A stretch of DNA of 64,000 nucleotides. Origin: Eledone cirrhosa (taxonomy: Eukaryota). The translations under genes and the position numbers were made by a program. The stretch lies in NCBI GenBank assembly GCA_964016885.1, contig OZ024742.1:142910001-142974000 (forward strand), written 5' to 3'. Of the stretch, positions 1,665 to 60,026 are shown one piece after another; position 1 is the first letter of the stretch; each line of letters begins with the position of its first letter. The notes below the pieces were generated by a model that worked only from the letters and a program-made list of their open reading frames with translations, had not been told where the DNA came from and searched no databases.

Positions 1665-3164
1665 ATTAACAAAATACACACTAGGTTCACTGCCTCAGTA
1701 ATAGCTTAATAGAGACTGTGAACCTTATTGATAGCGTCGAAATTATCGTCTGCAGTGAATATTATATTAAACGTGTTTATGTTTGTTTTTCTTTTCTAAA
1801 ATTAAGATATATATATATATTTCCCATCAGAGTCTTTTTACCAGTATTGGTACTTCGAAAGTGGAAGTAAATTCATAACGACTACAACGGTTGAATTGGT
1901 ATCAATATTTTTAAAAAAGGAAATATTTCGTTTCATTCACTGAATTCATATCGTAAATATATTTAAGAGTGTATTTCGTACTTTGTGATTAAAAAACAAA
2001 CAAAAACTAAATTAACGCTCCGTTTTTGTAGTTGTAGTACACTATCATTTTCCGCGTTCCATTAACAAAATATTATTCTCACGCTGAATTTTCAACAATT
2101 ATTGACTCTATTATTAATTAGCGATAGCTCTGAAACCCAACCACTTGGTATTATAGACATGTAGGGTCAGATGGTTAATTGGTATTGGTAGGTATGGTAG
2201 CATCCATTTGCCTAAGGACTTCGTTTCTGAGCGGATCCCTTTTGGTTTTGCCAGCTGCACGCTAGAGACATCACAGCCCACAGGTTATGAGTTTTCACTC
2301 CAGAGCTTTGTTCAGAGTCCAGGCTTGGCACTGGTAGATGAGGATGGAGCAAAGATTGAGTTAAACACTTTGATCTCCATTGGTAAGCTTGGGTTTTTAT
2401 GAGAAGTGATATATATAAATGTATATGTTACAATCCAATCTTCATCATCCTGATCTTTTTTTTTTTTAAAGAGTATGTAGGAATTCATTGGGAGTATAAC
2501 TTACAAGAGTATAACTTACCATTTCCACTTTCTCCAAGGTCTTAACGTCAGTAATTTATCAGCTTTCACTTTTGCAGTTGCCTCTATCATAAACCTATAG
2601 TTATCAATTTATCAAAGACCATGTTATATTTTGTAATTATTTATTTCATAGATTCTAGAAAAGACCCACCCACCAGTACAAGCACCATGACACTAAATGT
2701 AAATTTGATGAGAGGTCAGAGAATGCATGGAAAATAGAGATCCCTTTTTAGCTTGAATCGGATGAAACAATCTTTCTCGTTTGGGCACAAGAATAAAATG
2801 CACCCAGTATGTTCTGTAAAGTGGATGGTGATCTAACAGACAATAAAGGGTAGAGAAGACTCATCAGTCTTGCCAAGTGCAAGCCAACATCTCTAATGCT
2901 GACACCATAATAAAATACACCCAATACACTCTAGAAAGTGGATGGCTCAAGGAAAGGCATCCAGTCATAGAAACCATGCTAGATATGGAATGTAAGGGCA
3001 AGATGTGATTACCTAACTAATCTTATCTTGGACCATGATGATCTATCCAACCCATGTCAGCATGGAAAGTGGACATAAAATGATAATGAGGATAATTTAG
3101 TGAATCGTTTTAGTCACCTCTTATGAAATGCAAGGATGAGGTGTACTGTGAATCTGATACATAC

Positions 3165-3565
3165 ATCATCATCATTGTTTTTACATCCATTTTTCCATGC
3201 TTTCATGGGTTCTATTCAGCACAGCATCTCTCCACACATTGTGATCCTTCGTCATTTCTACAATGAGTTTCAGAGATTTGAGATCAGCTTTCATCATCTC
3301 TGCCCAGGTCATCTTTGGCCTTCCTTCTATTGGGATTTCTTGGCAATCACTATCCATGCGCATCACATGTCCGTACCAATGAAGTCTTCTCTCTTGCACA
3401 CTACTTCTGATGCCGCTTATACTCAGTTCATCCAAGCTCTTAACATTGCTCATCTATCAAAACAAACTTGCTTTATTTCTCTCCAGCCTGCGCATATCCT
3501 CTGCAGTCACTGCCTATGTTTCTGAACCATGCGGCATAGCACTTCACACACAGGCAGTCATAGGA
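3165..3565 (-). mobile_element. RTE-clade LINE 3' fragment (degenerate)
   Basis: Translation ERRLHWYGHVMRM...GRPKMTW matches the C-terminus of the longer RTE copy at 36773-38092; (GAT)n tail at about 3165. Confidence 0.75.
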
Positions 3566-5435
3566 AAATAACTAACAATTTACTTTCAGTCTGCCTTGCA
3601 GCAAAACAAAGGCTTCTGGCTCAACACAGTTCCCTCTTTCTCAACTGGCAATCTTTTTGACGATGAGTGTACATACATGAGAGTTACCTTACAGTGTTTC
3701 AATCTTTACCTGTGTGAGAAAAAAACAACACAAGACAAATGTATAATTTACAGCTCACATCTATGCAGGCCTAATACAAATGAGACTGCATCTCATCAGA
3801 AGTTTCTTAACTGTTTTAATGATAGGGGCCTGTCCTATCATGAAAAGTAACATAAAATAAAGTATCATGCTGAAGAACACAATGTGCCAGCTGGTCCAGT
3901 ATTTGAATTCATGATCTTACAATCAAGAGTTTCACAGCCCGTTCATTAGGCCACTTGCCTGTATGGGTGAAATAAATGCTGTAGTGGAGCAACTGTTAAT
4001 GAATTTGGACTGTATCTATTCCTTTGTTGTCACATTAAAAAGAGCTTTGATGCTGCCTGTTTCCCATCATAACTGGAACCTATTGCCATTAACCATAGCA
4101 ACAGTAAGAATCTGGACAGAACAACCCTTTTCCCATACAACTTCATTAAAAGTTATGGAATTGGTGATTTAACTTTCTCATTATTATGTTAGTGTTTGGC
4201 ATATAGCTTAGCAAAGGTTCTTACATAAAATTATAATTTCAGGTGGTTTTGTATCAAAGGGGTCAATAGTTTGAGGTCTTAAAAGACAACACCCATCAAG
4301 ATGCCACATAGTATGACATAGTCTAAGGGGCCAGCTTTGTTGCTTTAGATATAAGCCCAAGAATGCTTGCCTGCAATAAAGAGGAAAGATGAAAGATGAA
4401 TAAATGCCAGTCATTAACAGACATTCAATTTCAAGACAGTCTAACGGTTAGCCTTGTTGCTTCAGATTTATGCCCAAGAATGCTTGTTTATTTCAAAGAA
4501 GCCAGTGTTGAGAACTTGGATGTCCTTTATCCCCAGACTGATACTGTCTTCTTTGTTGAAAGTGTTAAGCTTGAGGGAAGAGCCCTGAGAGATAGAGTGG
4601 CTGATGCAGCAGACATTGCTGGTTGTTCTTCACAGCAATGATTAAGCAATCTTGTATGCAGGGTATAGATGAGATGTTCGACAAGGTATGAAGTGTTTCA
4701 CTGCATACATGTATTTTTAAAAAATTAAAATGTTAAATTTACTTCATTTAATAGCAATTAAGACAATGAATTGGCAGAGTCAATAAAATGCTTTGCAATA
4801 TTCATTCTGACACGGCTCCCATTATTTAACGTCCATTTTTTCCACACTAGCTCGGGTTAAATGAGTTGTCACGTTGAGACAAGCCAGGTCAGATGACCAT
4901 GCCTAGCTCATACAGAACTGATTCTGGCTCAGTTTCTACGACTGGATCCCCTTCCTAATGCCAACCACATGTGAAGTGTGTACTGGGTGCCTTTTTGGAT
5001 TGATAAATATGTGCAAGCCTAGTATTGGGGTTGAGTTTTCTCTTGCTTTCTTTCTCTCTCAGAAAGAAATCTGGTATATATCAAACCTGGAGAAGGATGG
5101 ATGATATCAAGTTTAAAATGCTTATGACACACTGTAAATCTCAATGGTGCCCCTACGGCACCATTAGGAATCATGAGACAGTGTTCAATGAAAAAATATA
5201 ATACAATCCGTATAGTTTTCAGGCAAAGGTTTTTATACATTTGTGCAAAAAAACAATTTTCAATGGAAAAAAGAAATTAAAAAAAACAAACTAATGATAT
5301 TTGTCCCTCAATTGATTTGAGAAAGATTTATTTTATATATCACTATTACATACATTTTTGGTTTTGTTTTACATTTAATTTTTAATCTATAGATGTGTAA
5401 AATATCAAGCATAATCTATATAAGGGGTAAAGAAT

Positions 5436-19301: not shown

Positions 19302-19501
19302 NNNNNNNNNNNNNNNNNNNNNNNNNNNNNNNNNNNNNNNNNNNNNNNNNNNNNNNNNNNNNNNNNNNNNNNNNNNNNNNNNNNNNNNNNNNNNNNNNNN
19401 NNNNNNNNNNNNNNNNNNNNNNNNNNNNNNNNNNNNNNNNNNNNNNNNNNNNNNNNNNNNNNNNNNNNNNNNNNNNNNNNNNNNNNNNNNNNNNNNNNNN
19501 N
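19302..19501. other. Assembly gap (200 N)
   Basis: Run of N characters. Confidence 1.
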
Positions 19502-21176: not shown

Positions 21177-21492
21177 CTATATAATTAAAAAAAAATAAAA
21201 TTAATTATTGAAAATTTTATTCACATAAAAAAAAAATTAAAATTCCATTTCACTTCCAATCATTATTTCAAATTGTTTATTCTAATTATCAATTCCAAGA
21301 AGATATCAACATAACGAAGGCAAAATTCTTTCACCTTAGAAGAAAAAATATTTAAAAGTTTTATAAAATAAAATTAAATTCATTAACCAGAGCTGTTGAA
21401 ACAAGTGGAGATTTCAGCTGCTAAGATGGGAAAAAAACAGAAGTGGACTGAGAACTAACTCTGATGCACCTCTATCTATACCTTGAATTTCT

Positions 21493-21532
<40 letters not shown>

Positions 21533-21537
<5 letters not shown>

Positions 21538-21648
21538 AACGAGTAGGACCCCGACGGCTGAGCTCAAGCCGTTTCGACGGCTAATTCTGTCCAGAATTAG
21601 CCGTCGAAATGGCTTGAGCTCAGCCGTCGGGGTCCTACTCGTTCCTAT
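21533..21648. repeat. Near-perfect GC-rich 116-nt palindrome between (TA)n tracts
   Basis: 57-bp arms around TC at 21590-21591; one G-T mismatch (21571/21610). Confidence 0.95.
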
Positions 21649-21789
21649 TACCCACTCTACTACCCTAAGTATTGAGTACTTTGATGCGTTATGGTCCACC
21701 TGGTTCCTTACCACATTTCCTTCGTTATATATATATATATATATATATAGTAAAAAATTATATATATATATGTATATATATATAGTAAG

Positions 21790-21851
<62 letters not shown>

Positions 21852-21972
21852 AAGTTATATTTAAATTGTTGGGTTACAACTAGTAAATATTTATAACTGA
21901 TATAAAAGCACTCGACAAATATTTGGAGTATATTTACAATATTAAATAAATGGAAACTATATTTATAAAACC

Positions 21973-22049
21973 ATATTTATTTCATTATATATATTTCAGG
22001 GATATCATATTAACAATATGCTATGCCTTCCTCAGACAAAATACAATAT
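21973..22049 (-). ncRNA. Type I hammerhead ribozyme motif (PLE-associated)
   Basis: Exact reverse complement of 25005-25081. Confidence 0.8.
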
Positions 22050-23400
22050 AAACAGTTTTATAGATAAATAGATTCGACATACCGTAACATCTACTTGCAT
22101 TCGAGAAGGTTGATTTGGTAGTGACAAAATTGTACACAAAGAGAAAGAAAGAGAGAGAGAAAGAGAGAAAAAGAGAGAAAAAAGAAAGAAAGACAGAAAA
22201 CGAAGAAAAAGAAAAAGAAGAAATGCATGGAACAAAATAGAGAGATGGAAAGATAGATAAAGAGAAGAACTTCATGTAAAGAAACAGAAAGAGATATATA
22301 TATATATAGAGAGAGGAAATAGAGATAGATAGATATATATAGAAAGCTAGGTAGTGGGACGACTGTTGAATAACGTATCAATGATACATTTATTTATTTA
22401 TTTATTTATTTAGCTCTAGTATTAATGTAAGGGAGATATATGGAGGGAAAACCAGCTGTTATATAGGGAGAGAAAAAATATAGAGAGAGAAAAAAATTCA
22501 AAAATATCCAGACACAGGCGAGGCGTAAAAAACCTCTGTTTTAATATAGAGGTATTAGTATTTACAAAACCAGCCTCTACATTGTAAATATCAGTATTCC
22601 TGAATGAGATATGTATCCACAATGTGTGAAAATTAATGATCTTATGTTTAGTTTTTAAAAAAAATTCATATGTTTATGTGATAATTACAAACATCTATGT
22701 GAATGTACATGATCAATTCTGCAAACCATAAGTTCACGGAAAGTATTCTCAATGTGGTATAAAAATTTAAGTATACATATATGTGTATATAGAGTCAATA
22801 TTACTATTTCAGTCTATCAAGCAAAGATAGAGCAGATTTCAATATACTAATAAAAATAAAAATAAAAATATATCGGAAACAAAACTAAAAATAACAATAA
22901 TAATAATAAGTAATAATAAAATAGAAAACTAAGAAATATTACGAAAGAATATTACATATTAAAAATATTACATATTAAAAAATTTACATATTAAGAATAT
23001 TAAAAATAAAAATAAAAATTAGGAAATACTACAATAATAAAAATAAAATAAACCACAAAGATCAACCCTTCAAAATTAATTGACAATATATTGCCAAGTT
23101 CATTATAAACATCAGAGTCGAAAAACAGATAAAGCCAAAAATTATCTATCAAATCGCATCTAGTAAAGATCATTTCAAAAAGTATAGGATGCCCAATTTG
23201 GTCTACATGTGTTCTTATATTTAATATAGAAGTTTATCTAGTGTAACGTTTATTCGAAATATTTGGAGCATCAACTTTTAGGATAGCTTAATTTTTCATG
23301 AAGAATGTTTAAATAAATAAAATAAAAATAAAAAGAATAAAAAGGGAATCAAAGATTTATCGGCTAGTTTCCCATATAATTATAAATCAAACTAAATATA

Positions 23401-23973
23401 CTACATTTTAAATTTAAATTTATATTTAAACGTTGAGTTTAATCTATGTTTGCAACAACTGAATAAATTTGTCCGTAGATTAAGGGAATTTTTAGATTTT
23501 AGTATAAAGAATATCTCCTCTGCGCAGAGGTCACATGTCTCAGAGGATGAATTAAAAGGAATCCCTCTTGAGACTATATTCCAAGCCGTCGAATATCTAA
23601 CGTTATCTAGCTTAAGTTGCCATAGTACGCCTGATAGTGCCGTTGAAGATTTTTTACTTGGATCTGTGAAAGAATTCTTGTGGTTATTATAGCGAAGTTT
23701 AAATTCCGTCGATGTGGAACCGACGTAGTTAAAAGAATTAGAGTCAGTATTAACATTACAATTGTATACTATATTTTTAACTAAGCAGTTGTTATTTAAC
23801 GGACATTTAGATCTATCTCTACAGTTACATTTGTTAACTTGTATATTATTTATGCTGTTATCACTAGGTTTTAAGTTCCTATTATTTATTCTATTGATAT
23901 TTTGTGCTAAATTTTTGGTGGATGAGTAGGTTAATTTAATTGTATGTCTATTGAAAATTGAGTGATATCTATG
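23401..23973 (-). pseudogene. PLE GIY-YIG endonuclease domain, 5'-truncated open frame of 190 codons plus stop, no start codon
   Basis: Manual translation HRYHSIFNRHTIKLTYSSTKNL...CNCRDRSKCPLNNNCLVKNIVYNCNV...YVGSTSTEFKLRYNNHKNSF...STALSGVLWQLK...W...CDLCAEEIFFI...LNLRTNLFSCCKH...*. IVY/YVG is the GIY-YIG signature, with the conserved R, E and N residues. Confidence 0.9.
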
Positions 23974-25004
23974 TTAATTTTTGAAGGGTTGATCTTTGTG
24001 GTTTATTTTATTTTTATTATTGTAGTATTTCCTAATTTTTATTTTTAATATTCTTAATATGTAAATTTTTTAATATGTAATATTTTTAATATGTAATATT
24101 CTTTCGTAATATTTCTTAGTTTTCTATTTTATTATTACTTATTATTATTATTGTTATTTTTAGTTTTGTTTCCGATATATTTTTATTTTTATTTTTATTA
24201 GTATATTGAAATCTGCTCTATCTTTGCTTGATAGACTGAAATAGTAATATTGACTCTATATACACATATATGTATACTTAAATTTTTATACCACATTGAG
24301 AATACTTTCCGTGAACTTAAGGTTTGCAGAATTGATCATGTACATTCACATAGATGTTTGTAATTATCACATAAACATATGAATTTTTTAAAAAACTAAA
24401 CATAAGATCATTAATTTTCACACATTGTGGATACATATCTCATTCAGGAATACTGATATTTACAATGTAGAGGCTGGTTTTGTAAATACTAATACCTCTA
24501 TATTAAAACAGAGGTTTTTTACGCCTCGCCTGTGTCTGGATATTTTTTTTCTCTCTCTTTTTTCTCTCTCTATATTTTTTCTCTCCCTATATAACAGCTG
24601 GTTTTCCCTCCATATATCTCCCTTACATTAATACTAGAGCTAAATAAATAAATAAATAAATAAATGTATCATTGATACGTTATTCAACAGTCGTCCCACT
24701 ACCTAGCTTTCTATATATATCTATCTATCTCTATTTCCTCTCTCTCTATATATATATATCTCTTTCTGTTTCTTTACATGAAGTTCTTCTCTTTATCTAT
24801 CTTTCCATCTCTCTATTTTGTTCCATGCATTTCTTCTTTTTCTTTTTCTTCGTTTTCTGTCTTTCTTTCCTTTTTTCTCTCTTTTTCTCTCTTTCTCTCT
24901 CTCTTTCTTTCTTTTTGTGTACAATTTTGTCACTACCAAATCAACCTTCTCAAATGCAAGTAGATGTTACGGTATGTCGAATCTATTTATCTATAAAACT
25001 GTTT

Positions 25005-25081
25005 ATATTGTATTTTGTCTGAGGAAGGCATAGCATATTGTTAATATGATATCCCTGAAATATATATAATGAAATAAATAT
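25005..25081 (+). ncRNA. Type I hammerhead ribozyme motif (PLE-associated)
   Basis: Stem I 5' ATATT-G-TATTTTGT; core CTGAGGA (25019-25025); stem II AGG-c-ATA-g-CATATT[GTT]AATATG-a-TAT-c-CCT; GAA then palindromic ATATATAT; cleavage-site A at 25068; stem I 3' ATGAAATA-AATAT. Confidence 0.8.
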
Positions 25082-25113
25082 GGTTTTATAAATATAGTTT
25101 CCATTTATTTAAT

Positions 25114-25162
<49 letters not shown>

Positions 25163-25178
25163 TATATATATATATATA

Positions 25179-26719
25179 TCAATGACCGAACTAGAGAAGA
25201 AATTCCAAACATGGAAGCACGGCCTAGAATCAAAAGGCCTTAAAATTAACCTGGCTAAGACTAAAGTTCTAGTTTGTAGGAAAGAAAATAAGGCGCCGGT
25301 CCCTTCCGGGAAATGGCCATGCTCAGTGTGTAGGAAAGGCGTAGGTAGAAACTCCATTTTATGTCCCAAATGCAAAGTATGGGTGCATAAAAGATGTAGT
25401 GGGATCACAGGTAAGCTAACTAAGAACATAGATTTTACATGTGGCCAGTGCTCTGGTGCAATAAGTAGCAGCAAGTGCCCACAAAATACTAGCTCTTTCA
25501 ATTGCGCAGAGGGTGCTATAGAAATAGTGGACAGCTGGGTGACAAAATCAGCAGTGGGGGGTGGGGGGTGGGTGTGCTCTGAAAGTACAGTAGCTAGAGT
25601 CAGAACTGGATGGAAAAAGTTCAGAGAGCTTATACCACTATTAGCCGCTAGAGGGTTCTCCCTAAAAATGAAAGGCAGGTTATACGATGCCTGCATACGA
25701 ACAGCAATGCTGCATGGCAGTGAGACCTGGGCATTATGTGCAGAGGATATACGCAGACTAGAGAGGAACGAAGCTTGCATGCTCCGCTGGATGTATAATA
25801 GTAATATACGTGAACGGCTAAGCATAAATGAACTAAGGAAAAAATTAGAAATAAAAGGGATCAGATGTTGTTTACTCGAGAGAAGGCTACGTTGGTACGG
25901 TCACGTGATGCGCATGAAAGACGACAGCTGTATAACAAAGTGCAGGGCAATAAAGATAGACGGTAGCCACGGAGTAGGCAGACCCAGAAAAACCTGGGAC
26001 GACATGATAAATTCCGACCTCACACGCTTACACCTCTCCAAGACAATGTCACTGGACCGAGACCTTTGGTGGTACTCAGTAATAGAGAAGACCCGCCTTA
26101 CCTAAATACAAAGTAAAACCTACTACAGTCAGTAGGCATCTCTATCAAAACACACCCCCGTCCCACCACCCCCACCTCATCCACACCGCCCCTTTCAATG
26201 TAAAGTTATGTTGGTGCCACAACATCCAGGCCGAAACAAATGAGATCGTGTAGGTGTCACGACAAAAAAAAAACACAGTCCACGCTGTAAATGTGGCCGT
26301 GTAGGCAACACGGTAAAAACCTCCCAGCCCCACACTGTAAATGTGGTTGGTGTTAGGAAGGGCATCCAGCTGTAGAAAACCCGCCAGACAGTCCACGCTG
26401 TAATGTGGCCATGTAGGCAACACAGTAAAAACCTCCCAGCCCCACACTGTAAATGTGGTTGGTGTTAGGAAGGGCATCCAGCTGTAGAAAACCCGCCAGA
26501 CAGTCCACGCTGTAATGTGGCCATGTAGGCAACACGGTAAAAACCTCCCAGCCCCACACTGTAAATGTGGTTGGTGTTAGGAAGGGCATCCAGCTGTAGA
26601 AAACCCGCCAGACGGTCCTATGCGAGCAAGACAACCACTCTTGCCTCAAGTGGGAAAACCCCCGTCCAAACCCATGCAAGCGTGGAACACGGACGCTAAA
26701 CCTTGATGATGATGATGAT
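25179..26719 (+). mobile_element. RTE-clade LINE, 5'-truncated young copy (ORF 25182-26105, 3' UTR, (GAT)n tail)
   Basis: Protein almost identical to the C-terminal part of ORF 36773-38092; three 112-bp UTR repeats; begins directly at a (TA)n tract. Confidence 0.95.
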
Positions 26720-27365
26720 ATATAATATATATATATATAGAGAGAGATAGTAAGAAATTATATATATATATGTGATGGGCTTCCACACAGTTTCTGGCAA
26801 CCAATTGTCACTTATAAGCCATTGGTCAGCCTAAACCGATAACAGATGGCACTTGTCTGAGGTTCCACACAGTGGTATTGAACCTAAAGGTATGTGGGTA
26901 TGAAATGTGTCATACAGTCATACCTGTGCCCTCCTCACCACAGCATAATCATTGTGTTACATATATTTTCCATGCTGACATGGTTTAGAGGTGTTGTCAG
27001 ATGACTGTGTCTTGCTAATACATTTCATTTTGGCATGGTTTGGTATCACCTTATCATCATTGTTTTTATGTCAAATTTTCCATGCTGGCATATGTTGGAC
27101 ACTACTTTCTGATGCCAACTCATACTTACTTTTAAGTATGGTACCTACTCCATTGATCTTCATTCTTTGAACTGATAATATGTGAGACATAAACAAATAG
27201 CATCAGTTTATTTTTTAAAGTGACGTCAATGTGAAGGCATATGGGGTGACATACACACATCATCTCATCTCATCTCATCTTCGTTTAACATCCATTTTCC
27301 ATGGGAGTTGTCCCACTTGAGGCAAGGTTGGTCGGGTGACCATGTCTCGCTCATATAGGACTATC

Positions 27366-27993
27366 TGAGTACCGCCAAAGGTCTCTGTCCAGTGACATTG
27401 TCTTGGAGAGGTGTAAGTGTGTGAGGTCGGAATTTATCAGCTCGTCCCAGGTTTTTCTGGGTCTGCCTATTCCGTGGCTACCGTCTATCTTTATTGCCCT
27501 GCACTTTGTTATACAGCTATCGTCTTTCATGCGCATCACGTGACCATACCAACGTAGCCTTCTCTCGAGTAAACAACATCTGATCCCTCTTATTTCTAAT
27601 TTTTTCCTTAGTTCGTTTATGCTTTGCCGTTCACGTATATTACTATTACACATCCAGCGGAGCATGCAAGCTTCGTTCCTCTCTAGTCTGCGTATATCCT
27701 CTGCACACAATGCTACAACATCAAGGCCGAAACAAATGAGATCGTGTAGGTGTCACGACAAAAAAACACACAGTTCACGCTGTAATGTGGCCGTGTAGGC
27801 AACATGGTAAAAACCTCCCAGCCCCACACTGTAAATGTGGTTGGTGTTAGGAAGGGCATCAGCTGTAGAAAACCCGCCAGATAGTCCTATGCGAGCAAGA
27901 TAATCACTCTTGCTCCAAGTGGGAAAACCCCCGTCCAAACCCATGCAAGTGTGGAACACGGACGTTAAACGTTGATGATGATGATGAATGATG
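27366..27993. mobile_element. RTE copy with 5' inversion (ORF end on minus 27366-27712, 3' UTR and tail on plus 27714-27993)
   Basis: Both halves match the family at 25179-26719 but in opposite orientations. Confidence 0.85.
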
Positions 27994-28412
27994 ATAGGAC
28001 TTTAGTCTTAGACAAGTTAACTTTAAGGCCTTTTGATTCTAGGCCATGCATATATATATGTTTAATATTTATTTTCCATGCTTGCATTGGTTAGATGGGC
28101 TGTTATTTTCTATGGCTAGACATGTCAGATGACTGTGTCACACTCATACATTTCATTTTGGTACATTTTCTTTGACTGGATGCCATTCCAAATGCCAATT
28201 GTACTCGAGTATGTTTTATTGTAGTGTGACATCACCAAATTTTAGACAATAAATCCCTTCTTTTCGTATCTTGTAAAAATGGTTCTGTTTTTTTTTTAAG
28301 TGTAGAAAGATCAAAAACTTAGATTTTCAAGGAGTTAAAATCTAGAAAGGCAGGTAATTTCAAGAAATAAAAATTGCACTGAGAAAAACTATATTAACAA
28401 AAGATTAGTCAC

Positions 28413-32033: not shown

Positions 32034-32069
32034 TCTTCTGATGAAGGACTAGTGTCCGAAATGTTAAGA
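32034..32069 (+). ncRNA. Minimal type I hammerhead motif, slightly decayed
   Basis: TCTT-CTGATGA-a-GGAC[TAGT]GTCC-GAA-ATGT-T-AAGA; ATGT is one CpG transition away from the palindromic ACGT helix III. Confidence 0.6.
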
Positions 32070-33779
32070 CCCTCTTCCTGTATTTCAAGTGTTAAACTAA
32101 TATATTCCTTCCATATACTGTACCATTTGTGTCGTTATTTCTGTTTACCTTTTATATACATATATATATATATATAACCAAATGAAAAAGATATATGTAT
32201 ATCTGGCGTCACGCAGTAATACAGAGTACCCGACCTCCCATGGGTACAAGCTGAAGCATATAGACGATATGCCTCCACCCCCTCCCACTGCAAGGTGGTT
32301 GTGGAGGCGCCACGGAAGAAAGCACCCAGCACTCACTGTAAATGAGGTTGGTGTTAGGAAGGGCATCCAGCTGTAGAAATCAAGCCAAAATCAGTTCCTG
32401 TATGAGCAAGGCATGGTCAGCCGACCAGACACTGCCCACAACAGGACAACCCGTCTAACCCATGCTAGCATGGAAGAATGGACGTAAAACAGTGATGATG
32501 ATGATGATATATATATAGAGGAGCCATATATCGTAAAAGAAACACAGTATATTGTATATATATATATATAGCAAATACATGTTCTATATACATATTCTGG
32601 ATAATGTCTATTAAAAGCTTAATAGACATTATCCAGAATATGTATTTGGTATATATACAATATACTGTGTTTCTTTTACGATATATGACTCCTTCTCTCT
32701 ATATATGTACATATATCTTATTGAGAAACACAAAATTCTAAACATATTTGATATGTTTTGATTCACTATATATATACACACACACACAAATACATACCAA
32801 AAGCTATTTACTACTTCTTAGGAACCTTCTGAGCATTTGAGGGAGTAAATTTTATGAGTAGCTTTACTGTTGAATACTCCTATGCACCTGTCACATTTGA
32901 AATCTAGCTTCTCTATCAACCTATCAGTGATACCACTAAACCTTTTGTTCACACTCTATACAGTACCTACCTATTCCTTGTTTGCATACTGAGCACAGCC
33001 AACTCCCAGAAAGTAGTAGAGTTTTATCCTATTTCTTACTAAAACTTTAGTTTTTGATAGATTTACTCACACACACATGCATGCAGCTTATGTAACTAAC
33101 TGAACTATTGATATCAATACCATAGCTATTTATAAAGCCTGAAGATTTCAAAATATTTAACACTATTTTTTATTGTAAACAGATGAGTATTTCTATAAAT
33201 TCAGTGATATGTATAGTGAACTGAGAGCAAGAGAAAGGTGAGAGGAAGGAAGATAGAAATATTGGTGTGAGGGGGGAGGGGGGATTAAACTAGACATGGG
33301 AGTTAATATATTGAAATGAGTTATAATAATTAGGATAGTTTAAATATGAAATATATACTTTAATAACAAGATGAGTGCCATATATCAGTCATAAGAAAAA
33401 AAAAAGAAAATTAAGTAGGTTAAAGACGATTTGCTACACTGCATCTGATTAGATATAAAATCAGCAATTCAGATATAATGACAATGAGTGCATAACATAA
33501 AGAAAAGGCAATCCTCTGAAACACCTAAGTATGAAAGTTAGCGAGGTGATTAATTTTGTTGTAAGTTTAGCTGGCAGCCTATGAGGCACATCAAATTACT
33601 AAAGAAGGTTTTTAGATGAACATAAATGCTTTAAACAGTTATGTATTGTAGAACTAGTACCAGTTCAATATCATAAAGGTTATCATCATTATAACAACCA
33701 TCACCATCTGTTGAACCACAGAGCTACAGGATATCAATATCGCCAGCTACCAAGCAGAGTCAATGTGAAGATACACATT

Positions 33780-35755: not shown

Positions 35756-36046
35756 AATAAAGGAAGGTCTGCGGGATTGCGTACGGTTTATTTTTTTTTA
35801 TCCTGTTTGTAAAATAATTTGGATTACTTTGAATAAATAATGAATGAATATTACATAATTTATCTACTCAATTTCGTAAACAAAAATAATTTAAAATTGA
35901 CTTCTTTTCAAAGTTGCACTTCAGGTATATCGTCGCCACCACATCATCATCATCATCATCAACGTTTAACGTCCATGTTCCACGCTTGCATGGGTTTGGA
36001 CGGGAGTTTTCCCACTTGAGGCAAGAGTGGTTGTCTTGCTCGCATA

Positions 36047-36606
36047 GGACTGTCTGGCGGGTTTTCTACAGCTGGATGCCCTTCCTAACACCAACCACAT
36101 TTACAGTGTGGGGCTGGGAGGTTTTAACCGTGTTGCCTACATGGCCACATTACAGCGTGGACTGTCTGGAGGGTTTTCTACAGCTGGATGCCCTTCCTAA
36201 CACCAACCACATTTACAGTGTGGGGCTGGGAGGTTTTTACCGTGTTGCCTACATGGCCACATTACAGCGTGGACTGTCTGGAGGGTTTTCTACAGCTGGA
36301 TGCCCTTCCTAACACCAACCACATTTACAGTGTGGGGCTGGGAGGTTTTTACCGTGTTGCCTACATGGCCACATTACAGCGTGGACTGTCTGGCGGGTTT
36401 TCTACAGCTGGATGCCCTTCCTAACACCAACCACATTTACAGTGTGGGGCTGGGAGGTTTTTACCGTGTTGCCTACATGGCCACATTACAGCGTGGACTG
36501 TCTGGCGGGTTTTCTACAGCTGGATGCCCTTCCTAACACCAACCACATTTACAGTGTGGGGCTGGGAGCTTTTTACCGTGTTGCCTACACGGCCACATTA
36601 CAGCGT
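36047..36606. repeat. 112-bp tandem repeat, 5 units, in the RTE 3' UTR
   Basis: Unit begins ggactgtctgg..ggttttctacagctggatgcccttcctaacaccaacc; the 112-nt period is also visible in the ORF track (36188, 36300, 36412). Confidence 0.95.
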
Positions 36607-36772
36607 GGACTGTGTGTTTTTTGTCGTGACACCTACACGATCTCATTTGTTTCGGCCTGGATGTTGTGGCACCAACATAACTTTACATTGAAAGGGGCAG
36701 TGTGGATGGGGTGGGGGGTGGGTGTATTTTGTTAGAGATGCCTACTGACTGTAGTAGGTTTTTACTTTGTAT

Positions 36773-39166
36773 TTAGGTAAGGCGGGTCTTCTCTATTACT
36801 GAGTACCGCCAAAGGTCTCTGTCCAGTGACATTGTCTTGGAGAGGTGTAAGTGTGTGAGGTCGGAATTTATCAGCTCGTCCCAGGTTTTTCTGGGTCTGC
36901 CTACTCCGTGGCTACCATCTATCTTTATTGCCCTGCACTTTGTTATACAGCTGTCGTCTTTCATGCGTATCACGTGACCATACCAACGTAGCCTTCTCTC
37001 GAGTAAACAACATCTGATCCCTCTTATTTCTAATTTTTTCCTTAGTTCGTTTATGCTTTGCCGTTCACGTATATTACTATTACACATCCAGCGGAGCATG
37101 CAAGCTTCGTTCCTCTCTAGTCTGCGTATATCCTCTGCACACAATGCCCAGGTCTCACTGCCATGCAACATTGCTGTTCGTATGCAGGCATCATACAACC
37201 TGCCTTTCATTTTTAGGGAGAACCCTTTAGCGGCTAATAGTGGTATAAGCTCTCTGAACTTTTTCCATCCAGTTCTGACTCTAGCTACTGTACTTTCAGA
37301 GCACCCTCCCCCACTGCTGATTTTGTCACCCAGGTAACGGAAGCTGTCCACTATTTCTATCGAACCCTCTGCGCAATTGAAAGAGCTAGTATTTTGTGGG
37401 CACTTGCTGCTACTTATTGCACCAGAGCACCGGCCACATGTAAAATCTGTGTTCTTAGTTAGCTTACCTGTGATCCCACTACATCTTTTATGCACCCATA
37501 CTTTGCATTTGGGACATAAAATGGAGTTTCTACCTACGCCTTTCCTACACACTGAGCATGGCCATTTCCCGGTAGGGACCGCCGCCTTATTTTCTTTCCT
37601 ACAAACTAGAACTTTAGTCTTAGCCAGGTTAATTTTAAGGCCTTTTGATTCTAGGCCGTGCTTCCATGTTTGGAATTTCTTCTCTAGCTCGGCCATTGAT
37701 TCAGCTATCAGCGTTAGATCATCTGCGTATAGGAGTTCCCATGGGCAGCCGGTCTTGAACTCCTCTGTTATAGCCTGAAGGGCAATAATAAATAGTAGGG
37801 GGCTAAGAACAGAGCCCTGATGGACACCAACTTTTACGCTAAACTCTTCACTATATTCGTTGTTAATTCTAACCTTGCTGACTGTTTCTTTATACATGGC
37901 TTGTATAGCTCTCACAAGCCATTCGTCAACACCTAGTTTTCTAAGAGCCCACCAGATAATGAAACGGGGGACTCTGTCGAAGGCTTTCTCCAAGTCGACA
38001 AAAGCTAAGTATAGGGGTTTACTTTTAGCTAGGTACTTTTCCTGTAGTTGTCGTACAATGAAAAGAGCGTCTGTGGTACTTTTACCTGACACAAACCCGA
38101 ACTACATTTCATCTAGATCAATTCTCTCTCTGATTAGTTGCGCTATTACTTTTTCCGTGACCTTCATGACCTGGTCGATTAATTTAATGCCTCTATAGTT
38201 ACTCCTATCTAGGGCGTCTCCTTTACCCTTGTAACAGTTAACGATGATGCTGCTACGCCAGTCCTTCGGAACAACCCCATTCTGTATGACTTGGTTTACT
38301 ATCCGGGTGACCATGGTGTGTCGCACCGTTCCAGAGGCTTTCAGCATCTCAGCAACTATTTCCAAAGGCCCAGCCGCCTTACCCGTCTTCATATCTTTGA
38401 TTGCCTTACTTATTATACTACCTTCGACTAACACTGCTGGTCCCTCTATTGGGTCGATGTGGGGGAGACTGTCTTTCTCCCATTTATTTTCCTCATTTAG
38501 TAGCCTTTCGTAGTAACACTTCCAAGCTACCTTCTTATCAGTGTCAGTGATGGCAAGTACGCCATCATCGTTAAGTACACACTTCTCCCCGACAATATCA
38601 CGGTTTTCCTTGACACATTGCCTAGCAATCCTGAACACCTCACGTTGTAGAACATGCTTGAACTTTCTTTCCTCTGCTTCCCTTCTTGCGAAGTACACTT
38701 GTCTCCTAGCTTCCCTCCTGGCCACTTGATAGTCTTCTCTACTTCCCCCATCTCGCCATGCTTTCCAAGCCTGCTTTTTGGCCTTGATTGACCCCTCCAC
38801 CTTACTGTTCCACCACCATGTTACTCTCCTCCTGCCTACAGGCCTGCTCCAGCCACAGACTTCGTCTGCCGCCATCAGCAGGTTTGCTTTCAGGAATTCC
38901 CACTGTTCCTCTACCTTGTACGACTCTAATTGCTCTTCCTTACTGTCGAAAGCATCAAGTAATATGCTTTGAAATTTATTTCTGGCTGTGGGATCCTTTA
39001 GCTTCCATATTTTTCTCCTGAGGATAGTCCTCTTCTGCTGTCTAGTACGTCTCGTCCTGACTATGAGGTCGCTAATTATCAGTCTATGTTGGGAGGTGCA
39101 TTCTTCATGGGGGAGGGATTTAGTGTTTACAACAGACACTCTGTTACGTCTTCTGGTAAGGATATA
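36773..39166 (-). pseudogene. RTE reverse transcriptase ORF with one in-frame nonsense codon
   Basis: ORFs 38102-39139 and 36773-38092 are in the same frame, separated by DEM*FGFV (TAG at 38102-38104) where the paralogue at 43076-43624 reads DEMQFGF. Confidence 0.93.
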
Positions 39167-39692
39167 TATATATAGAAAGAGAGAGTTTGTGATGTCAACA
39201 CTTCCGGTGGCGATCGCTTAAATAAACATACTCATTTTCTCCTAATGCAGTTTATATATAATATCGTCTTTTTTTAATGTATCATGGATTACGTTACTGA
39301 TTACATAACAGTGTAACGCAGTCTTCGTTCAATTTCTGTGTATATTGTCAATTAGTCAATTACAATTTTATTTGATGTATCATATCTACATGTATATATA
39401 TACCTGAGTATATCAATATACACACTACACATGCTAGCAGAAAACCACCCGAAGGGTGGTTTTTCTGCTAGTATTTAAAATTATATAAGTTGATAAAACA
39501 ACAGTAACGCGTTCAGATATTTATTTAAAGCTCAAATGTGGTTTATTATATATCCAGAATAATGCGAGATATTTCAGAGGTGAATCCAGTTGATATACTT
39601 CCAGTCATCCCAGATTGAAATCACAGAGCATATATTAAAAAAAAAATAGCTGTTGAACTTGGTGACTCATTTCTTTGTTTTATATATATATA

Positions 39693-49760: not shown

Positions 49761-50305
49761 CTCCTCCTGGGTACACAAGAGGTGTGGGATCTCAGGAAGT
49801 CTAGCTAAAATGTTTTTCACATTGAACCGCCGCATCGAGGCAGTAAGCAGCAAACGACCACAGGAAACAAGCACTATCAAATTCCCGGAAGGTTCAGTAG
49901 GCAGCTTCTGTTACCTGAGTGACCAAATTAGCAGTGAAGGTGGGTGTTCTGAAAGTACTGTAGCCAGACTAAGAATGAAATGGAAGAAGTTCAGAGAGCT
50001 ACTATCGCTGTTAGCTACAAAAGACTTTTCCCTCAAAATGAAAGGCAGACTATAATGTGTGCATACGAACAGCAATGTTGCACGATAGTGAGACCTGGGT
50101 GCTGTGTGCATAAGACTTGCGTAGATTGGAAAGAAATTAAGCCTGCATACTCTGGTGGATGTGTGATAGTAATATACGTGAACGACAAAGCATAAACAAA
50201 CTGAGAGAGACACTAGGCATAAGAGGAATCAGATGCAGTGTGCAAGAGAGAGTGTGTTGGTATGGACATGTGATGCATATAAAAAGGTGCTGAGTGTTCA
50301 AAGTC
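49761..50305 (+). mobile_element. RTE fragment (family of 35942-39166)
   Basis: WVHKRCGISG...FCYLSDQISSEGGCSESTVARLR...WYGHVM. Confidence 0.8.
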
Positions 50306-52078
50306 AAGTCGAGTCCTCTCGTGCATGTACCGAGGTCCTCCCGTGAAGGTAGAAGGCAGGATGCAGACCTTGCCAATGTTTCGGGGATCCCCGTCGTTGG
50401 TCAAGCCGTCTCGCAGGTGTATGTAGCTTTCGCTACGCAGTTGCTGCTGGTGGGTTCGAATGAAGGCCAGTCGTTCTAACTCCATCTTTGCTGCCATATC
50501 CACCGCAAATTGGTTCAGTAGGTCCTGCGATCTGTGCAAACTGTTGAAACAGTTTCTCCGAGGCATGAGTCGGTATGCGTAAAATTCCTTGCAGGACGCG
50601 GTTTTGGCGGCAGCAACGGAGGGCTGGTTTGGCTGGCAGTGTGGAGTCTTGAAGTGGTAGCCGTCCTCGCCGCGGGGGAAAAGTAGAGGGTATTGGAGGC
50701 TGTCGTAGGAGCGGTGTGTTTCGCGTATTCTGTGGAGGCCAGTTGCACGGTTGGATATGACGATATCCCGGGGGTTGCGCTGGTCTCCGTGAAGGACGAC
50801 TGCCACCTCGTTGCACGCGGGCGCGTTGAATCGACGGGCGTGTTCTCCGGATGGTCTTTTGTCGGCATCGATGACAATGTTGAAGTTAGGCAGGTCAGTA
50901 GTCTCCAAGGCGTACTTGAAGCTCTGCACGTAGCTGTTTTCGGAGTGTAGCATTTGCTGCAGCGCAAGGAGGACGTCTCTGTCCAGGTTCTCTCTAGTGC
51001 CATCAGCTGGGATGACAGATGAGTGCATGTCAGCCTGCTTGTTGTAGTCAGCTATGAAGTAAATTTGCAGGAAGGCGGGTTGTGCTGCCGGCTCAGGCTG
51101 TAGAGGACCGACATAGTGGTAAACCTGGCCCTGAACCTTAAAGGTTGGCATCCACCCGCTTTCTCGTACAATTTTGGCCCTGAACGAAGTCATCTGGAAA
51201 GCGCAGTTGTATTTCCTTATGTTGCCAAGGAAGTCTGTTGACGTAGAGGTCTCTCCACTAAGAAGTTCTCGCAAAGGTTCTGGAGGGGCCGCCAAAGGAG
51301 GAAGTGAAACCTTCCCATTAGAGCAACACAGGCCAGGTGTTTCTCCGGGCCACTTCTCTGCACCACAGAATTGGCATATGACATCCATCCTGCCTAGTTG
51401 AATGTCCGTACGGTCGGAGTATTTTACTGTTGGATCGTAGTTGAAAGCCTTCATAAGCCCAAATGACTCATGTGGACTCATTGTTCCTCTGGCGGTGTCT
51501 CTTCGTGCGTTGTTTGTGTCCAACCGAGCACGGCGAGCTGTTTGATGTTCTGCGGCACGGGAGGCGGCAGTGGATACAGCGTTCTGGGACCTTCGGATGG
51601 CTGTCTGTATCTCGGTCTGGGATGCTCTGGCAGCTGCGGTGGAGGCGGAGTCCTTGGACCTTCAGATGGCTGTCTCCTGGTCGGTTTCTGCGGCACGGGA
51701 GGCGGCGGTTGAAGCAGCGTTCTTTGACCGTCTGGTGGCTGTTTGCTGTTTAGTTTCGGAGGCCCTTGCAGCAGCAGTAGTTGCAGCATTCCTAGCCCTA
51801 CGAAGAGCTCTTTGGCTGTCACTCTCTGCTGCCCTAGAGGCGGCTGTTGCAACTGCATTCCGACAATTACGAATGGCACGATTCGAAGCAGTAACCGTAG
51901 ATAGAGAGGTGCTGGGTTGGGCTGTGCTAGGAGTACTTAAGTTTGAAAGTGAAGTAACAGGGGTTTGTGGCCAAAAATGCAGTCCGGCATCCGTAGACTG
52001 CTCATTCAATCGCCTCTTTTTTGAAACAACAGACGATGTTTTCCTACGGTTAAGGGTACTCTTTCTTTTCAGTGGCAT
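50306..52078 (-). pseudogene. Helitron RepHel N-terminal region (repeats, zinc-binding motif, helitron_like_N), one premature stop, truncated before the HUH and helicase domains
   Basis: ORFs 51662-52078 and 50213-51523 are in one frame. CQFCGAEKWPGETPGLCCSNGKV, FLGNIRKYNCAFQMTSF, FKVQGQVYH, YDSLQYPLLFPRGEDG and ILPSTFTGGPRYM are typical RepHel motifs. Confidence 0.92.
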
Positions 52079-53240
52079 GGTTGCAATAGTACAGTAAACA
52101 GTAAAGGGGAAGCAGGTTTACAGCAAAGGCAAAAAAGCGAAGGTGATAAGCAGTATTATGGGGAAGGTAAAAAAAAGTGACAAATTGTTACAATTTTAAG
52201 CAAGAAAAAAGTAAACAAAAAACGTACTGAGAATGGCAAAGTCCGAAAGCGAGGTCACAAAATGTAATGCAGTGAGAGTGAAGCACACGTCTACACAGTA
52301 GCCTAACCAAGTAGCAAGTGTAGCGTTTGAAAACCAAAGCTTTGCAGGCCACTCAAATCAACGATAAGAGTCTGCAGAATTTTTTGATAGCAGTCTTGCC
52401 AAAACAGAATAAAAGCTGCCACCTCCAGCCGTCCATGAAATTTTTTTTTTGATTCAAGGCGAAAATTTGTCCACTTCTCGACCGAAAGAAAGCAAAAACT
52501 GACTCAACTGGTGCCAGGTGGTCAGAACTGGCAGGAACTGGTTTGTGTCACGTGAAGCTGTAACTATAGCAACAGTGGTTCCCTCGGTCTCAAAGACCAA
52601 AGTAAGTGGAGAGGGGAAGGTAATGTTACTGTAACACCAACAACGTCTCTCTCTATATTCCTCGCTCAATAAAGAAGGGGGAGGGGGAAGGTAATGTTAA
52701 TATAGCAACAGTGGTTCGCTCACTGACCAAAGTGGAGAGGGGAATGTAATATTTCTGTGACACCCAAAACTTCTCTCTCTATCTTCCTCTCTCTCTCTCT
52801 AAAGAAGAGGGAAAGGGAAGGTAATGTTACTATAAGACCTGTTATTCCTGTCTCTCTATATACGAAGTGGAGATTCGACCTCGAGCTTCACTCTCGACCG
52901 AATTTCGAAATGATTCGAGCACGTCAACAAAATTTAGACTCTTTTCTACCCATATTAGCAAAAAACCGGGTCAAAAAACTCAAAAGGAAAAATTTTTCAC
53001 GCGTGCATAAAATGCAACCTCATCTCCCGATTTCACCCAAAATAGACAAAAAGGTGGATTGCGGGCCCCTAGGGGGACCTATCAAAAAACAAAGTAGCCT
53101 AAGCAATGTAAAGGGTCATGAGGAGTGATGTATGCAAATTTGAGCGAGATCGGGCGAGCGGTGTAGACGCCAACCTCGAATAATGTAGCATCCACACACA
53201 CACACAGACAAACACACATCCTCTGTTTTATATATATAGA
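50306..53240 (-). mobile_element. Helitron, 5' portion (3'-truncated)
   Basis: Minus strand starts A|TCTATATATATAAAA (canonical Helitron 5' end) and contains the N-terminal part of a RepHel ORF; no hairpin/CTRR 3' end seen; the left junction is approximate. Confidence 0.9.
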
Positions 53241-57145: not shown

Positions 57146-57537
57146 TACTATATATATAATAGAAATTGAAGCTTTCGCCATATTTTTGACTAAAGAAACT
57201 TTAGCCTGATAGTGGGGTTTAGAACCCTCTAAGAAATGGAAAAAGATGAGTATTGACATACATGGGAGTTGTACCACATCTTTGGTTATCCAGACCACTG
57301 TGCTACCATTACACCAACACATCACACATCTTTTTGGTAGCACAGAGGTCTAGATAACCAAAGATATGGGTTCAACTCCCATGTACGTCAATACTCATCT
57401 TTTTCCATTTCTTAGAGGGTTCTAAACTCCACTATCAGGCTAAAGTTTCTTTAGTCAAAAATACAGCAAAAGCTTCTATTTCTATTTTAAAACTCACTCG
57501 CTGTTTTAAAAACATACTTACTTGTCATATATATATG

Positions 57538-57720: not shown

Positions 57721-57807
<87 letters not shown>

Positions 57808-57930
57808 AAAGTTATATTTAAAATTGTTGGGTTACAACTAGTAAATATTTATAACTGATATAAAAGCACTCGACAAATATTTGGAGTATATTTACAATAT
57901 TAAATAAATGGAAACTATATTTATAAAACC

Positions 57931-58007
57931 ATATTTATTTCATTATATATATTTCAGGGATATCATATTAACAATATGCTATGCCTTCCTCAGACAAAAT
58001 ACAATAT
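57931..58007 (-). ncRNA. Type I hammerhead ribozyme motif
   Basis: Identical to 21973-22049. Confidence 0.8.
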
Positions 58008-59715
58008 AAACAGTTTTATAGATAAATAGATTCGACATACCGTAACAACATCGACTTGCATTTGAAGAGGTTGATTTGGCAGTGAAAAAATTGTACACAG
58101 AGAGAAAGAAAGAGAGAAAAAAGAAAGAAAGACAGAAAACGAAGAAAAGGAAGAAAAAGAAGAAATGCATGGAACAAAATAGAGAGATGGAAAGATAGAT
58201 AAAGAGAAGAACTTCATGTAAAGAAACAGAAAGAGATATATATATATAGAGAGAGAGGAAATAGAGATAGATACATATATATATAGAAAATTAGGTAGTG
58301 GGAGGTCTGTTGAGTAAATGTATCAATGATACATTTATTTATTTATTTATTTATTTAGCTCTAGTATTAATGTAAGGGAGATATATATAGAGAGAAAAAA
58401 AATATAGAGAGAGAAAAAAATATAGCGAGAGAAGAAAAAATTTAAAAATAACCAGATATATGCGAGGCGTAAAAACCCTATGTTTTAATGTAGAGGTATT
58501 AGTATTTATAAAACATCCACTATATTGTAAATATCAGTATTCCTGAATGAGACAAGTATCCATAGTGTGTGAAAATTAATGATCTTATGTTTAGTTTTTT
58601 AAAAAATTCATATGTTTATGTGATAGCTACAAACATCCATGTGAATCTACATGATCAACTCTGCAAACCCTAAGTTCACGGAAAACATTCTCAATGTGGT
58701 ATAAAAATTTGAGTATACATATATGTGTATTATTATTCCTGTCTTTACTCTACAAGATTATCTATCAAGCAGAAATAGAGAGCAGATTTCAATATACTAA
58801 TAAAAATATATATCAGAAACAAAACTAAAAAAATAACAATAATAATAATAGTTAGTTTTCTATTTTATTATTACTTATTATTATTATTGTTATTTTTTTA
58901 GTTTTGTTTCTGATATATATTTTTATTAGTATATTGAAATCTGCTCTCTATTTCTGCTTGATAGATAATCTTGTAGAGTAAAGACAGGAATAATAATACA
59001 CATATATGTATACTCAAATTTTTATACCACATTGAGAATGTTTTCTGTGAACTTAGGGTTTGCAGAGTTGATCATGTAGATTCACATGGATGTTTGTAGC
59101 TATCACATAAACATATGAATTTTTTAAAAAACTAAACATAAGATCATTAATTTTCACACACTATGGATACTTGTCTCATTCAGGAATACTGATATTTACA
59201 ATATAGTGGATGTTTTATAAATACTAATACCTCTACATTAAAACATAGGGTTTTTACGCCTCGCATATATCTGGTTATTTTTAAATTTTTTCTCTCGCTA
59301 TATTTTTTCTCTCTCTATATTTTTTTCTCTCTCTATATATATCTCCCTTACATTAATACTAGAGCTAAATAAATAAATAAATAAATAAATGTATCATTGA
59401 TACATTTACTCAACAGACCTCCCACTACCTAATTTTCTATATATATATGTATCTATCTCTATTTCCTCTCTCTCTATATATATATATATCTTTCTGTTTC
59501 TTTACATGAAGTTCTTCTCTTTATCTATCTTTCCATCTCTCTATTTTGTTCCATGCATTTCTTCTTTTTCTTCCTTTTCTTCGTTTTCTGTCTTTCTTTC
59601 TTTTTTCTCTCTTTCTTTCTCTCTGTGTACAATTTTTTCACTGCCAAATCAACCTCTTCAAATGCAAGTCGATGTTGTTACGGTATGTCGAATCTATTTA
59701 TCTATAAAACTGTTT

Positions 59716-59792
59716 ATATTGTATTTTGTCTGAGGAAGGCATAGCATATTGTTAATATGATATCCCTGAAATATATATAATGAAATAAATAT
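59716..59792 (+). ncRNA. Type I hammerhead ribozyme motif
   Basis: Identical to 25005-25081. Confidence 0.8.
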
Positions 59793-59824
59793 GGTTTTAT
59801 AAATATAGTTTCCATTTATTTAAT

Positions 59825-59871
<47 letters not shown>

Positions 59872-59913
59872 ATAATGATAAATTTGAAGACTAAACTTTA
59901 ATCTGTTATTTTA

Positions 59914-59949
<36 letters not shown>

Positions 59950-59994
59950 TAAAATAACAGATTAAAGTTTAGTCTTCAAATTTATCATTATTAC

Positions 59995-60026
<32 letters not shown>

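Follow-up and report, generated by a model that had tools for sequence, protein, structure and literature searches.

A probable Hydra-clade Penelope-like insertion, with two truncated copies head to head, in an intron of the octopod RCHY1 gene

The stretch of DNA analyzed here (the window) comprises 64,000 nucleotides (nt) of Eledone cirrhosa, assembly GCA_964016885.1, contig OZ024742.1, positions 142,910,001 to 142,974,000 of the forward strand. It holds an intron of the RCHY1 (Pirh2) gene in which a fold-back unit of ∼3.3 kb lies at 21849-25119, with a (TA)n tract on either side. We consider it highly probable that this unit is an insertion of a Penelope-like element (PLE) of the Hydra clade, doubly 5′-truncated and likely dead, in which two partial copies are joined head to head and the 3′ end of each faces outward into (TA)n. 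A first-pass annotation made from the letters alone had drawn identical limits for the unit; an 86-nt tail on the left arm is absent from it. The parts of the unit, its host intron, and a second insertion of the same family are as follows, in window coordinates.

21849..21934, minus strand: 86-nt 3′ tail, on the left arm only, adjoining (TA)n at 21794-21848 (arm alignment and ends; an 87-nt counterpart lies on one arm of the second insertion).
21935..23079, minus strand: left arm, the distal 3′ untranslated region of the main 5′-truncated copy, whose sense is minus (arm alignments).
21978..22043, minus strand: type I hammerhead motif (structural descriptor; 0 of 2,000 shuffles).
23080..23097, minus strand: 18-nt near-perfect palindrome, its 3′ foot adjoining the start of the inverted arm (2,125 nt contain five palindromes of 8 bp or more, this one included; spotted post hoc).
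23080..23400, minus strand: proximal 3′ untranslated region, in the single-copy loop (frame and loop position).
23401..23973, minus strand: 5′-truncated end of an open reading frame (ORF), with the reverse transcriptase (RT)-endonuclease linker, CxCx5C, a GIY-YIG core (IVY/YVG, R94, H98, E153, N165), CxxC, CxH, and stop (ORF list, homologues, conserved columns, model).
23973..23974, no strand: head-to-head junction of two 5′-truncated copies (arm alignment).
23974..25119, plus strand: right arm, an inverted 5′-truncated copy of plus sense with its own hammerhead motif (C3 at 25017) and no tail (arm alignment, descriptor).
21177..28412, minus strand: coding intron 4 of the octopod RCHY1 (Pirh2) gene, holding the whole element (exon matches).
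57806..59830, no strand: second insertion of the same family, a near-perfect hairpin with arms 99.2% identical and offset by 25 nt, no coding part, and an 87-nt tail on its left arm (BLAST, descriptor, alignment).

The arms were compared by BLAST and by global alignment. BLAST pairs 21929-23079 with 23974-25125 at 97.8% identity over 1,159 columns, with 10 mismatches and 5 gap openings; the global alignment leaves 6 mismatches, one of which is at the TA boundary, and 6 gaps, most of them in simple repeats. When the ambiguous TA run is set aside, the arms cover 21935-23079 and 23974-25119, each ∼1,145 nt, which bears out the two inverted arms of that length noted at first pass, and the inverted, 5′-truncated partner suspected there takes the form of two truncated copies head to head. 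The loop between the arms is 894 nt and single copy, and the right end of the unit runs into (TA)n at 25118-25159. No direct (tandem) pseudo-long terminal repeat remains in the unit, and a target-site duplication is unreadable inside (TA)n.

The loop carries the only coding part. The frame at 23973-23401 (minus) has 190 codons from stop to stop and contains the motifs CNCRDRSKCPLNNNC, IVY..YVG, CDLC, and CCKH, with Cys and His residues at C49/C51/C57, C147/C150, and C174/H176, a single Cys between Y70 and Y83, and the stop codon directly after the CxH. Its start at the inversion junction and its Cys and IVY/YVG motifs, already described at first pass, are confirmed by the ORF list and the sequence. 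The upstream stop codon is supplied by the inverted arm, and the frame is the truncated terminus of a longer ORF, since its relatives align from residue 1; residues 1-177 align to 519-700 of P0022, the C-terminal end of this 713-residue RT protein. The frame has no initiating Met and no RT. The earlier label of intact therefore applies to the endonuclease domain only, and the copy is likely dead.

An exhaustive phmmer search with the frame gave 5,370 proteins at E ≤ 0.001, the best 150 of which are 31-48% identical to the frame. Among the matches listed, all 15 relatives of at least 580 residues carry YRDD and have the endonuclease match at the C terminus; DKT is present in 12 of the 15 and RW[KR] in nine by pattern, with P0004 in addition starting MRWK. 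The RWK/DKT region is truncated away in the window copy, so that both marks are read in the relatives. A structure model of the frame, built from a 132-sequence alignment, has a pLDDT (predicted local distance difference test) of 87.7. Compared with 48,161 chains, the model matches I-TevI best (Z 9.0, root-mean-square deviation 2.1, 88 residues aligned), followed by T4 EndoII (Z 7.3), the GIY-YIG domain of UvrC (Z 6.1), and a 5hmC-specific restriction endonuclease (Z 5.5). These four are the only chains with Z of at least 5; all are nucleases, and three are titled or known as GIY-YIG. An Atlas lead points to a GIY-YIG cluster at 0.96, with 23% of its members annotated. The match to I-TevI thus upholds the GIY-YIG nuclease fold proposed earlier and, together with the RT-endonuclease relatives, the assignment to PLEs; the profile search suggested as a check finds no Pfam family, and it is the structural comparison that finds GIY-YIG nucleases.

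Catalytic R94, H98, E153, and N165 and all of the Cys/His motifs are kept in the frame. It departs from the relatives at 8 of 54 conserved columns (median of the relatives 5; at least 8 departures in 25 of 100), including E169N, which occurs in none of 123 relatives. The function of the endonuclease domain is plausible from its residues, not proven, and the open frame is a weak guide to age because of these departures.

The hammerhead motif of the left arm is composed of an 8-bp stem I, a CUGAGGA core (C3 at 22035), a long stem II, GAAA, and a palindromic AUAUAUAU stem III. The predicted cut falls after AUA at 21986 (minus), and the motif lies 137 nt from the long (tailed) end of the element. 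Scanning both strands of the window with the structural descriptor gave five matches, namely, the four arms of the two insertions and a weaker site at 32038, and no match arose in 2,000 dinucleotide shuffles of the 1,552-nt 3′ region. The hammerheads foreseen in the arms are accordingly found in both as type I motifs by descriptor, though an Rfam search detected no hammerhead. We take the motif to be a predicted self-cutting RNA motif that exceeds chance. The weaker site, at 32038-32075 (plus), is a hammerhead-like core (CTGATGA-stem-GAAA) that stands alone and has a weak stem I. In the loop, 23125-23061 (minus) is predicted to form a three-way junction that adjoins the start of the inverted arm and contains a near hammerhead core, CTGATGT, at 23115, 285 nt past the stop. 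As a second hammerhead it was rejected, failing the descriptor with two core mismatches and no adjacent stem I; it is possibly a decayed ribozyme.

With these parts in hand, the family fits the Hydra clade on every testable feature, as far as sequence comparison reaches. As characterized by Craig et al. (2021, PMC8557442), Hydra elements have a C-terminal endonuclease without CCHH, a CxCX5C linker, and CxxC plus CxH, along with RWK and DKT, canonical hammerheads, and (TA)n targets, insertion into (TA)n being described for nearly all Hydra families (PMC8557442). In the frame, CCHH is absent, and the CxCX5C linker and the C-terminal CxxC and CxH, placed around the catalytic E and N, are all present; the hammerhead and the inverted 5′-truncated partner are shared as well, and (TA)n is found at all four ends of the two insertions. 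Neptune, Nematis, and Penelope-Poseidon were rejected, as their CCHH with two Cys between GIY and YIG is absent from the frame. The supplement of Craig et al. includes Hydra-1_Obim from Octopus bimaculoides (2,507 bp) and an inverted, 5′-truncated copy, Penelope-13_HM (PMC8557442). Hydra-1_Obim differs from the present family in its endonuclease and hammerhead sequences (set apart by eye, without alignment) and has ∼126 nt from stop to hammerhead by manual count, versus 1,365 nt here. The fold-back thus appears to represent a new family within a clade already described, Hydra, and its insertion architecture is also a known one. When seven RT-endonuclease relatives were run against the window by tblastn, the sole match was the frame at 23973-23401, with no RT-bearing copy in the 64 kb; no relative was found in viral contigs. 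An index of sequencing runs gave 23 runs, of which seven contain 0.30-0.51 of the words of the loop (four organism labels, three studies) and none is an RNA run containing it; these runs carry no weight in our reading. Hydra-type RT-endonuclease loci (L081-L098) also turned up in contigs of bacterial metagenome-assembled genomes and symbiont genomes, where they are most likely host animal DNA binned with the bacterial genomes.

The second insertion repeats the layout of the first. Its right arm ends on the same base as the tail-less end of the first, and in both the tail occurs on one arm only (86 and 87 nt). Between the two insertions there are no substitutions in the terminal 240 nt versus 69 in 771 nt upstream (Fisher p 5e-9), which points to selection on a terminal cis-element; the last ∼240 nt, which include the hammerhead and both of the start sites, are likely a cis-acting signal. 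The upstream differences imply recent activity in two or more diverged source lineages. The family had been called young, and this holds for the insertions, both of which are recent by their arms (97.8% and 99.2%), and fails for the sources, which are ∼9% apart, so that the family is better described, on these comparisons, as recently active than as simply young. Gene conversion between the arms could also make them look younger than they are. Two neighboring repeats have a similar form. At 21533-21725, an unrelated mini fold-back in (TA)n has 58-nt arms, a 2-nt center, and a 77-nt one-sided tail, and holds an apparent 3′ half of a hammerhead (GAAA, stem, GTC); it is likely a stump left by another PLE family. 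Immediately past the second insertion, at 59862-60001, lies a perfect ∼140-nt inverted repeat centered on a (TA)n run; it bears no similarity to the fold-back element and may be target DNA duplicated in inverse orientation or a tail-to-tail stump.

In one respect the unit stands out in quantity. In the fold-back, 1,365 nt separate the stop codon from the hammerhead core C3, which agrees with the ∼1.35 kb estimated at first pass. To place this figure, the 3′ ends of relatives were drawn from 98 loci collected via the RT-endonuclease alignment, which gave 84 endonuclease ends with a stop, 77 of them non-redundant. A relaxed descriptor finds a hammerhead in 46 of these 77, 47-515 nt past the stop (median 130), so that the distance in the fold-back is ∼10 times the median; many contigs of the relatives are short, so that long ends tend to be missed, and for 31 of the 77 the descriptor gives no match. 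When 12 of these 31 were re-examined, a core was located 46-181 nt past the stop in four and none in the other eight. The unusually long 3′ region claimed earlier therefore stands, at 1,365 nt versus 47-515 nt in 46 relatives. This region is T-rich with many simple repeats, and its two ATG-started frames of at least 50 residues (57 and 84) were rejected because they look like low-complexity read-through. In the relative L030, no hammerhead core was found in 2414-4146 and the first long (TA)n comes 1,702 nt past the stop; L030 may be a second long-ended Hydra candidate. A counterpart outside the clade is Pen1_Av of the rotifer Adineta vaga, which likewise has a 0.9-1.5-kb noncoding stretch from ORF to terminal repeat (PMC3846280); its spacers are unrelated among copies, being captured host DNA, whereas here the two insertions have ∼1,050 nt of the region in common, ∼91% identical. 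Both the long 3′ region and the long tail are quantitative oddities, and the fold-back is otherwise ordinary.

Its architecture is a case in point. An inverted copy with a one-sided tail of 30-40 nt is typical of PLEs (PMC8557442, PMC3846280), and the canonical signature includes inverted copies placed head to head, a tail that may be present on one arm, AT-rich targets, and two defined 3′ ends (Arkhipova et al. 2013, PMC3846280; PMC11167929). The fold-back matches this signature, which is repeated by the second insertion and the mini fold-back, and differs in its tail, 86-87 nt instead of 30-40 nt. What we observe is a pair of 5′-truncated copies in head-to-head orientation, whose two 3′ ends are fixed and lie in (TA)n; among the 98 loci of relatives, 20 likewise have inverted repeats of 80 nt or more, some of these repeats being 600-1,500 nt long. 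For the anole Poseidon protein, Frangieh et al. (2024, PMC11167929) describe that the purified protein cleaves and extends both strands at AT-rich DNA in vitro and that reverse transcription starts from two internal sites bounding the tail, with the hammerhead dispensable. By analogy, we propose that an RT-GIY-YIG protein encoded by an intact master copy at another locus would have nicked both strands of a (TA)n tract and that reverse transcription would have been primed at each nick, from the far 3′ site and from an internal site 86 nt upstream, leaving a one-sided tail. One complementary DNA (cDNA) would have extended 2,125 nt, into the linker ahead of the endonuclease, and the other would have halted after ∼1,145 nt, where the 18-nt RNA hairpin of 23080-23097 possibly stopped it, before host repair would have joined both cDNA ends. 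The palindrome is only suggestive as a stop point for the shorter cDNA, given its discovery post hoc. Microhomology to (TA)n was rejected as an explanation sufficient by itself for the tail-less end: this end is a 7-of-8 match, yet several equal or better matches in the last 260 nt stay unused.

Fold-backs are a known long-read artefact. An assembly or chimeric-read palindrome is nonetheless extremely improbable here, since the arms differ in substitutions and indels, the 894-nt loop and the tail are unmirrored, a diverged copy 36 kb away has the same tail-less end, and the RCHY1 exons are colinear on both sides of the element; the arm mismatches and the second copy, which had been cited against a chimera from the start, are both seen in the alignments and at 57806-59830. 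Nor do we give real credence to a Naiad element, the affinity suggested in the first-pass annotation. Naiads share a Cys-rich motif ahead of the GIY-YIG core, the preference for (TA)n, and inverted insertions, and they occur in Octopus species (PMC8557442). They are described as having an N-terminal endonuclease, CX2-5CxxC plus CCHH, DKA, and no canonical hammerhead (PMC8557442), whereas in the relatives of the frame the endonuclease is C-terminal (519-700 of 713 in P0022) and DKT takes the place of DKA, one Cys and no pair stands between IVY and YVG, the linker is CxCx5C, and a canonical hammerhead motif is found. The family thus fails as a Naiad on three counts (domain order, zinc-finger motifs, and hammerhead). 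Several points weigh against the Hydra reading as set out above. The RT-level Hydra marks rest on relatives ∼40% identical, because no RT-bearing copy of the fold-back family was found in the searches of the window and, by the hammerhead motif, of metagenome contigs. The frame matches no Pfam family, 12 long relatives match no RT or GIY-YIG family in Pfam, a PDB sequence search with the 132-sequence profile gave no match, and Foldseek returned nothing at E ≤ 0.001 (E 0.18 or higher, although the top two rows are GIY-YIG nucleases). The hammerhead fold differs from the minimum-energy fold of the monomer (-5.5 versus -6.9 kcal/mol), none of four segments is significant by single-strand folding z-score (hammerhead z 0.27), and the hammerhead 22-mer had no match in metagenome contigs; a non-minimum-energy monomer fold does suit the hammerheads of animal PLEs, which have a short palindromic helix III presumed to call for dimers and show weak cleavage (PMC4209133). 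The in vitro model was worked out in another clade, one with a 30-40-nt tail, and on three insertions nicking of both strands is indistinguishable from self-priming of a folded cDNA.

That alternative concerns the mechanistic step only. In it, a single cDNA would give rise to the mirror arm, either by folding back and priming itself or by a template switch, and the endonuclease would trim the tail; we rate this alternative as possible, if somewhat unlikely. The second insertion and the mini fold-back are near-perfect hairpins with 25-nt and 2-nt centers, self-priming has been proposed from junction palindromes (PMC3846280), and endonuclease-mediated resolution of the tail has been proposed as well (PMC8557442). 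In the main element, however, the arms are 894 nt apart and the cDNA end has no visible complementarity to the re-priming site (by eye; at most 2 nt ambiguous), and both target strands are extended in vitro (PMC11167929). A different doubt touches the 3′ region, which may be a composite of an ordinary short Hydra end (∼300 nt) and a captured or separate noncoding module of 1.15 kb that bears the hammerhead and can also move alone in trans. The ∼10-fold excess over the median of the relatives would suit this, as would the start of the inverted arm exactly at the palindrome foot, 36 nt past the sole other near-core (CTGATGT at 23115), the second insertion consisting of the module alone, and the captured 0.9-1.5-kb spacers known in rotifer Pen1 (PMC3846280). 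We find it rather improbable: the near-core departs from the core at two positions and lacks an adjacent stem I, truncation of the second insertion falls ∼150 nt further in and not at 23079, copies without a coding part are explained by ordinary 5′ truncation, and the rotifer spacers vary among copies while ∼1,050 nt are common to both here. A head-to-head insertion of two truncated copies, primed at two nicks, remains our preferred reading.

The host gene, RCHY1, has eight exons on the minus strand, from 48599 to 7124, seven of which are 72-92% identical to RCHY1 of Octopus bimaculoides; the sixth, a short exon, matches weakly (64%), with splice sites supporting it. These matches make an octopod host likely. 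The closest named match of a queried exon is to O. bimaculoides (80%). A 200-nt gap of N lies at 19302-19501 in RCHY1 intron 5. Folded alone, the two arms pair 97% of their bases, hammerhead included, so that the RCHY1 pre-mRNA carrying the fold-back is predicted to contain a 1.15-kb double-stranded stem in which the ribozyme would be masked, because the head-to-head unit puts an antisense arm first in either direction of transcription. Two further fragments in the window, at 25161-26719 and 35946-39217, are young, 96-98% alike, and inverted relative to each other, one of them beginning directly past the (TA)n at the right end of the fold-back; judging by their ORF motifs, they look like pieces of an RTE-like long interspersed element. 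They would add further long double-stranded RNA (dsRNA) to the RCHY1 pre-mRNA. Elsewhere in the window are a 41-bp tandem satellite from about 13550 (copies ∼95% alike, 115 in-register windows by the repeat finder), a 482-residue frame at 50213-52117 (minus) that looks like the N-terminal part of a Helitron Rep-helicase, and a weak tRNA match at 57254-57323 (minus, 30.9 bits), possibly the head of a short interspersed element.

Octopus is described as exceptional in hyper-editing and dsRNA potential (PMC5625713), and kilobase intronic hairpins are plausible, predicted ADAR substrates in octopus. A bolder scenario, which we regard as speculative and improbable, is that an octopod Hydra lineage gained a kilobase 3′ module, ∼10 times the norm of the clade, and an 86-nt tail, that the module would spread by itself as a protein-free hairpin, and that its insertions would silence their own hammerhead in introns and supply dsRNA for A-to-I (adenosine-to-inosine) hyper-editing. 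The fold-back findings contain no new kind of system. Their interest lies in a clade that is thinly sampled, with 27 families in the defining paper and one from a cephalopod (PMC8557442); our literature search found no later study of Hydra PLE ends, and because neither Pfam nor Rfam detects the present family, repeats of this kind readily escape annotation. The fixed pair of 3′ ends, set 86 nt apart, suggests that Hydra elements also follow the two-start-site model described in vitro for a Poseidon element, with a longer spacing.

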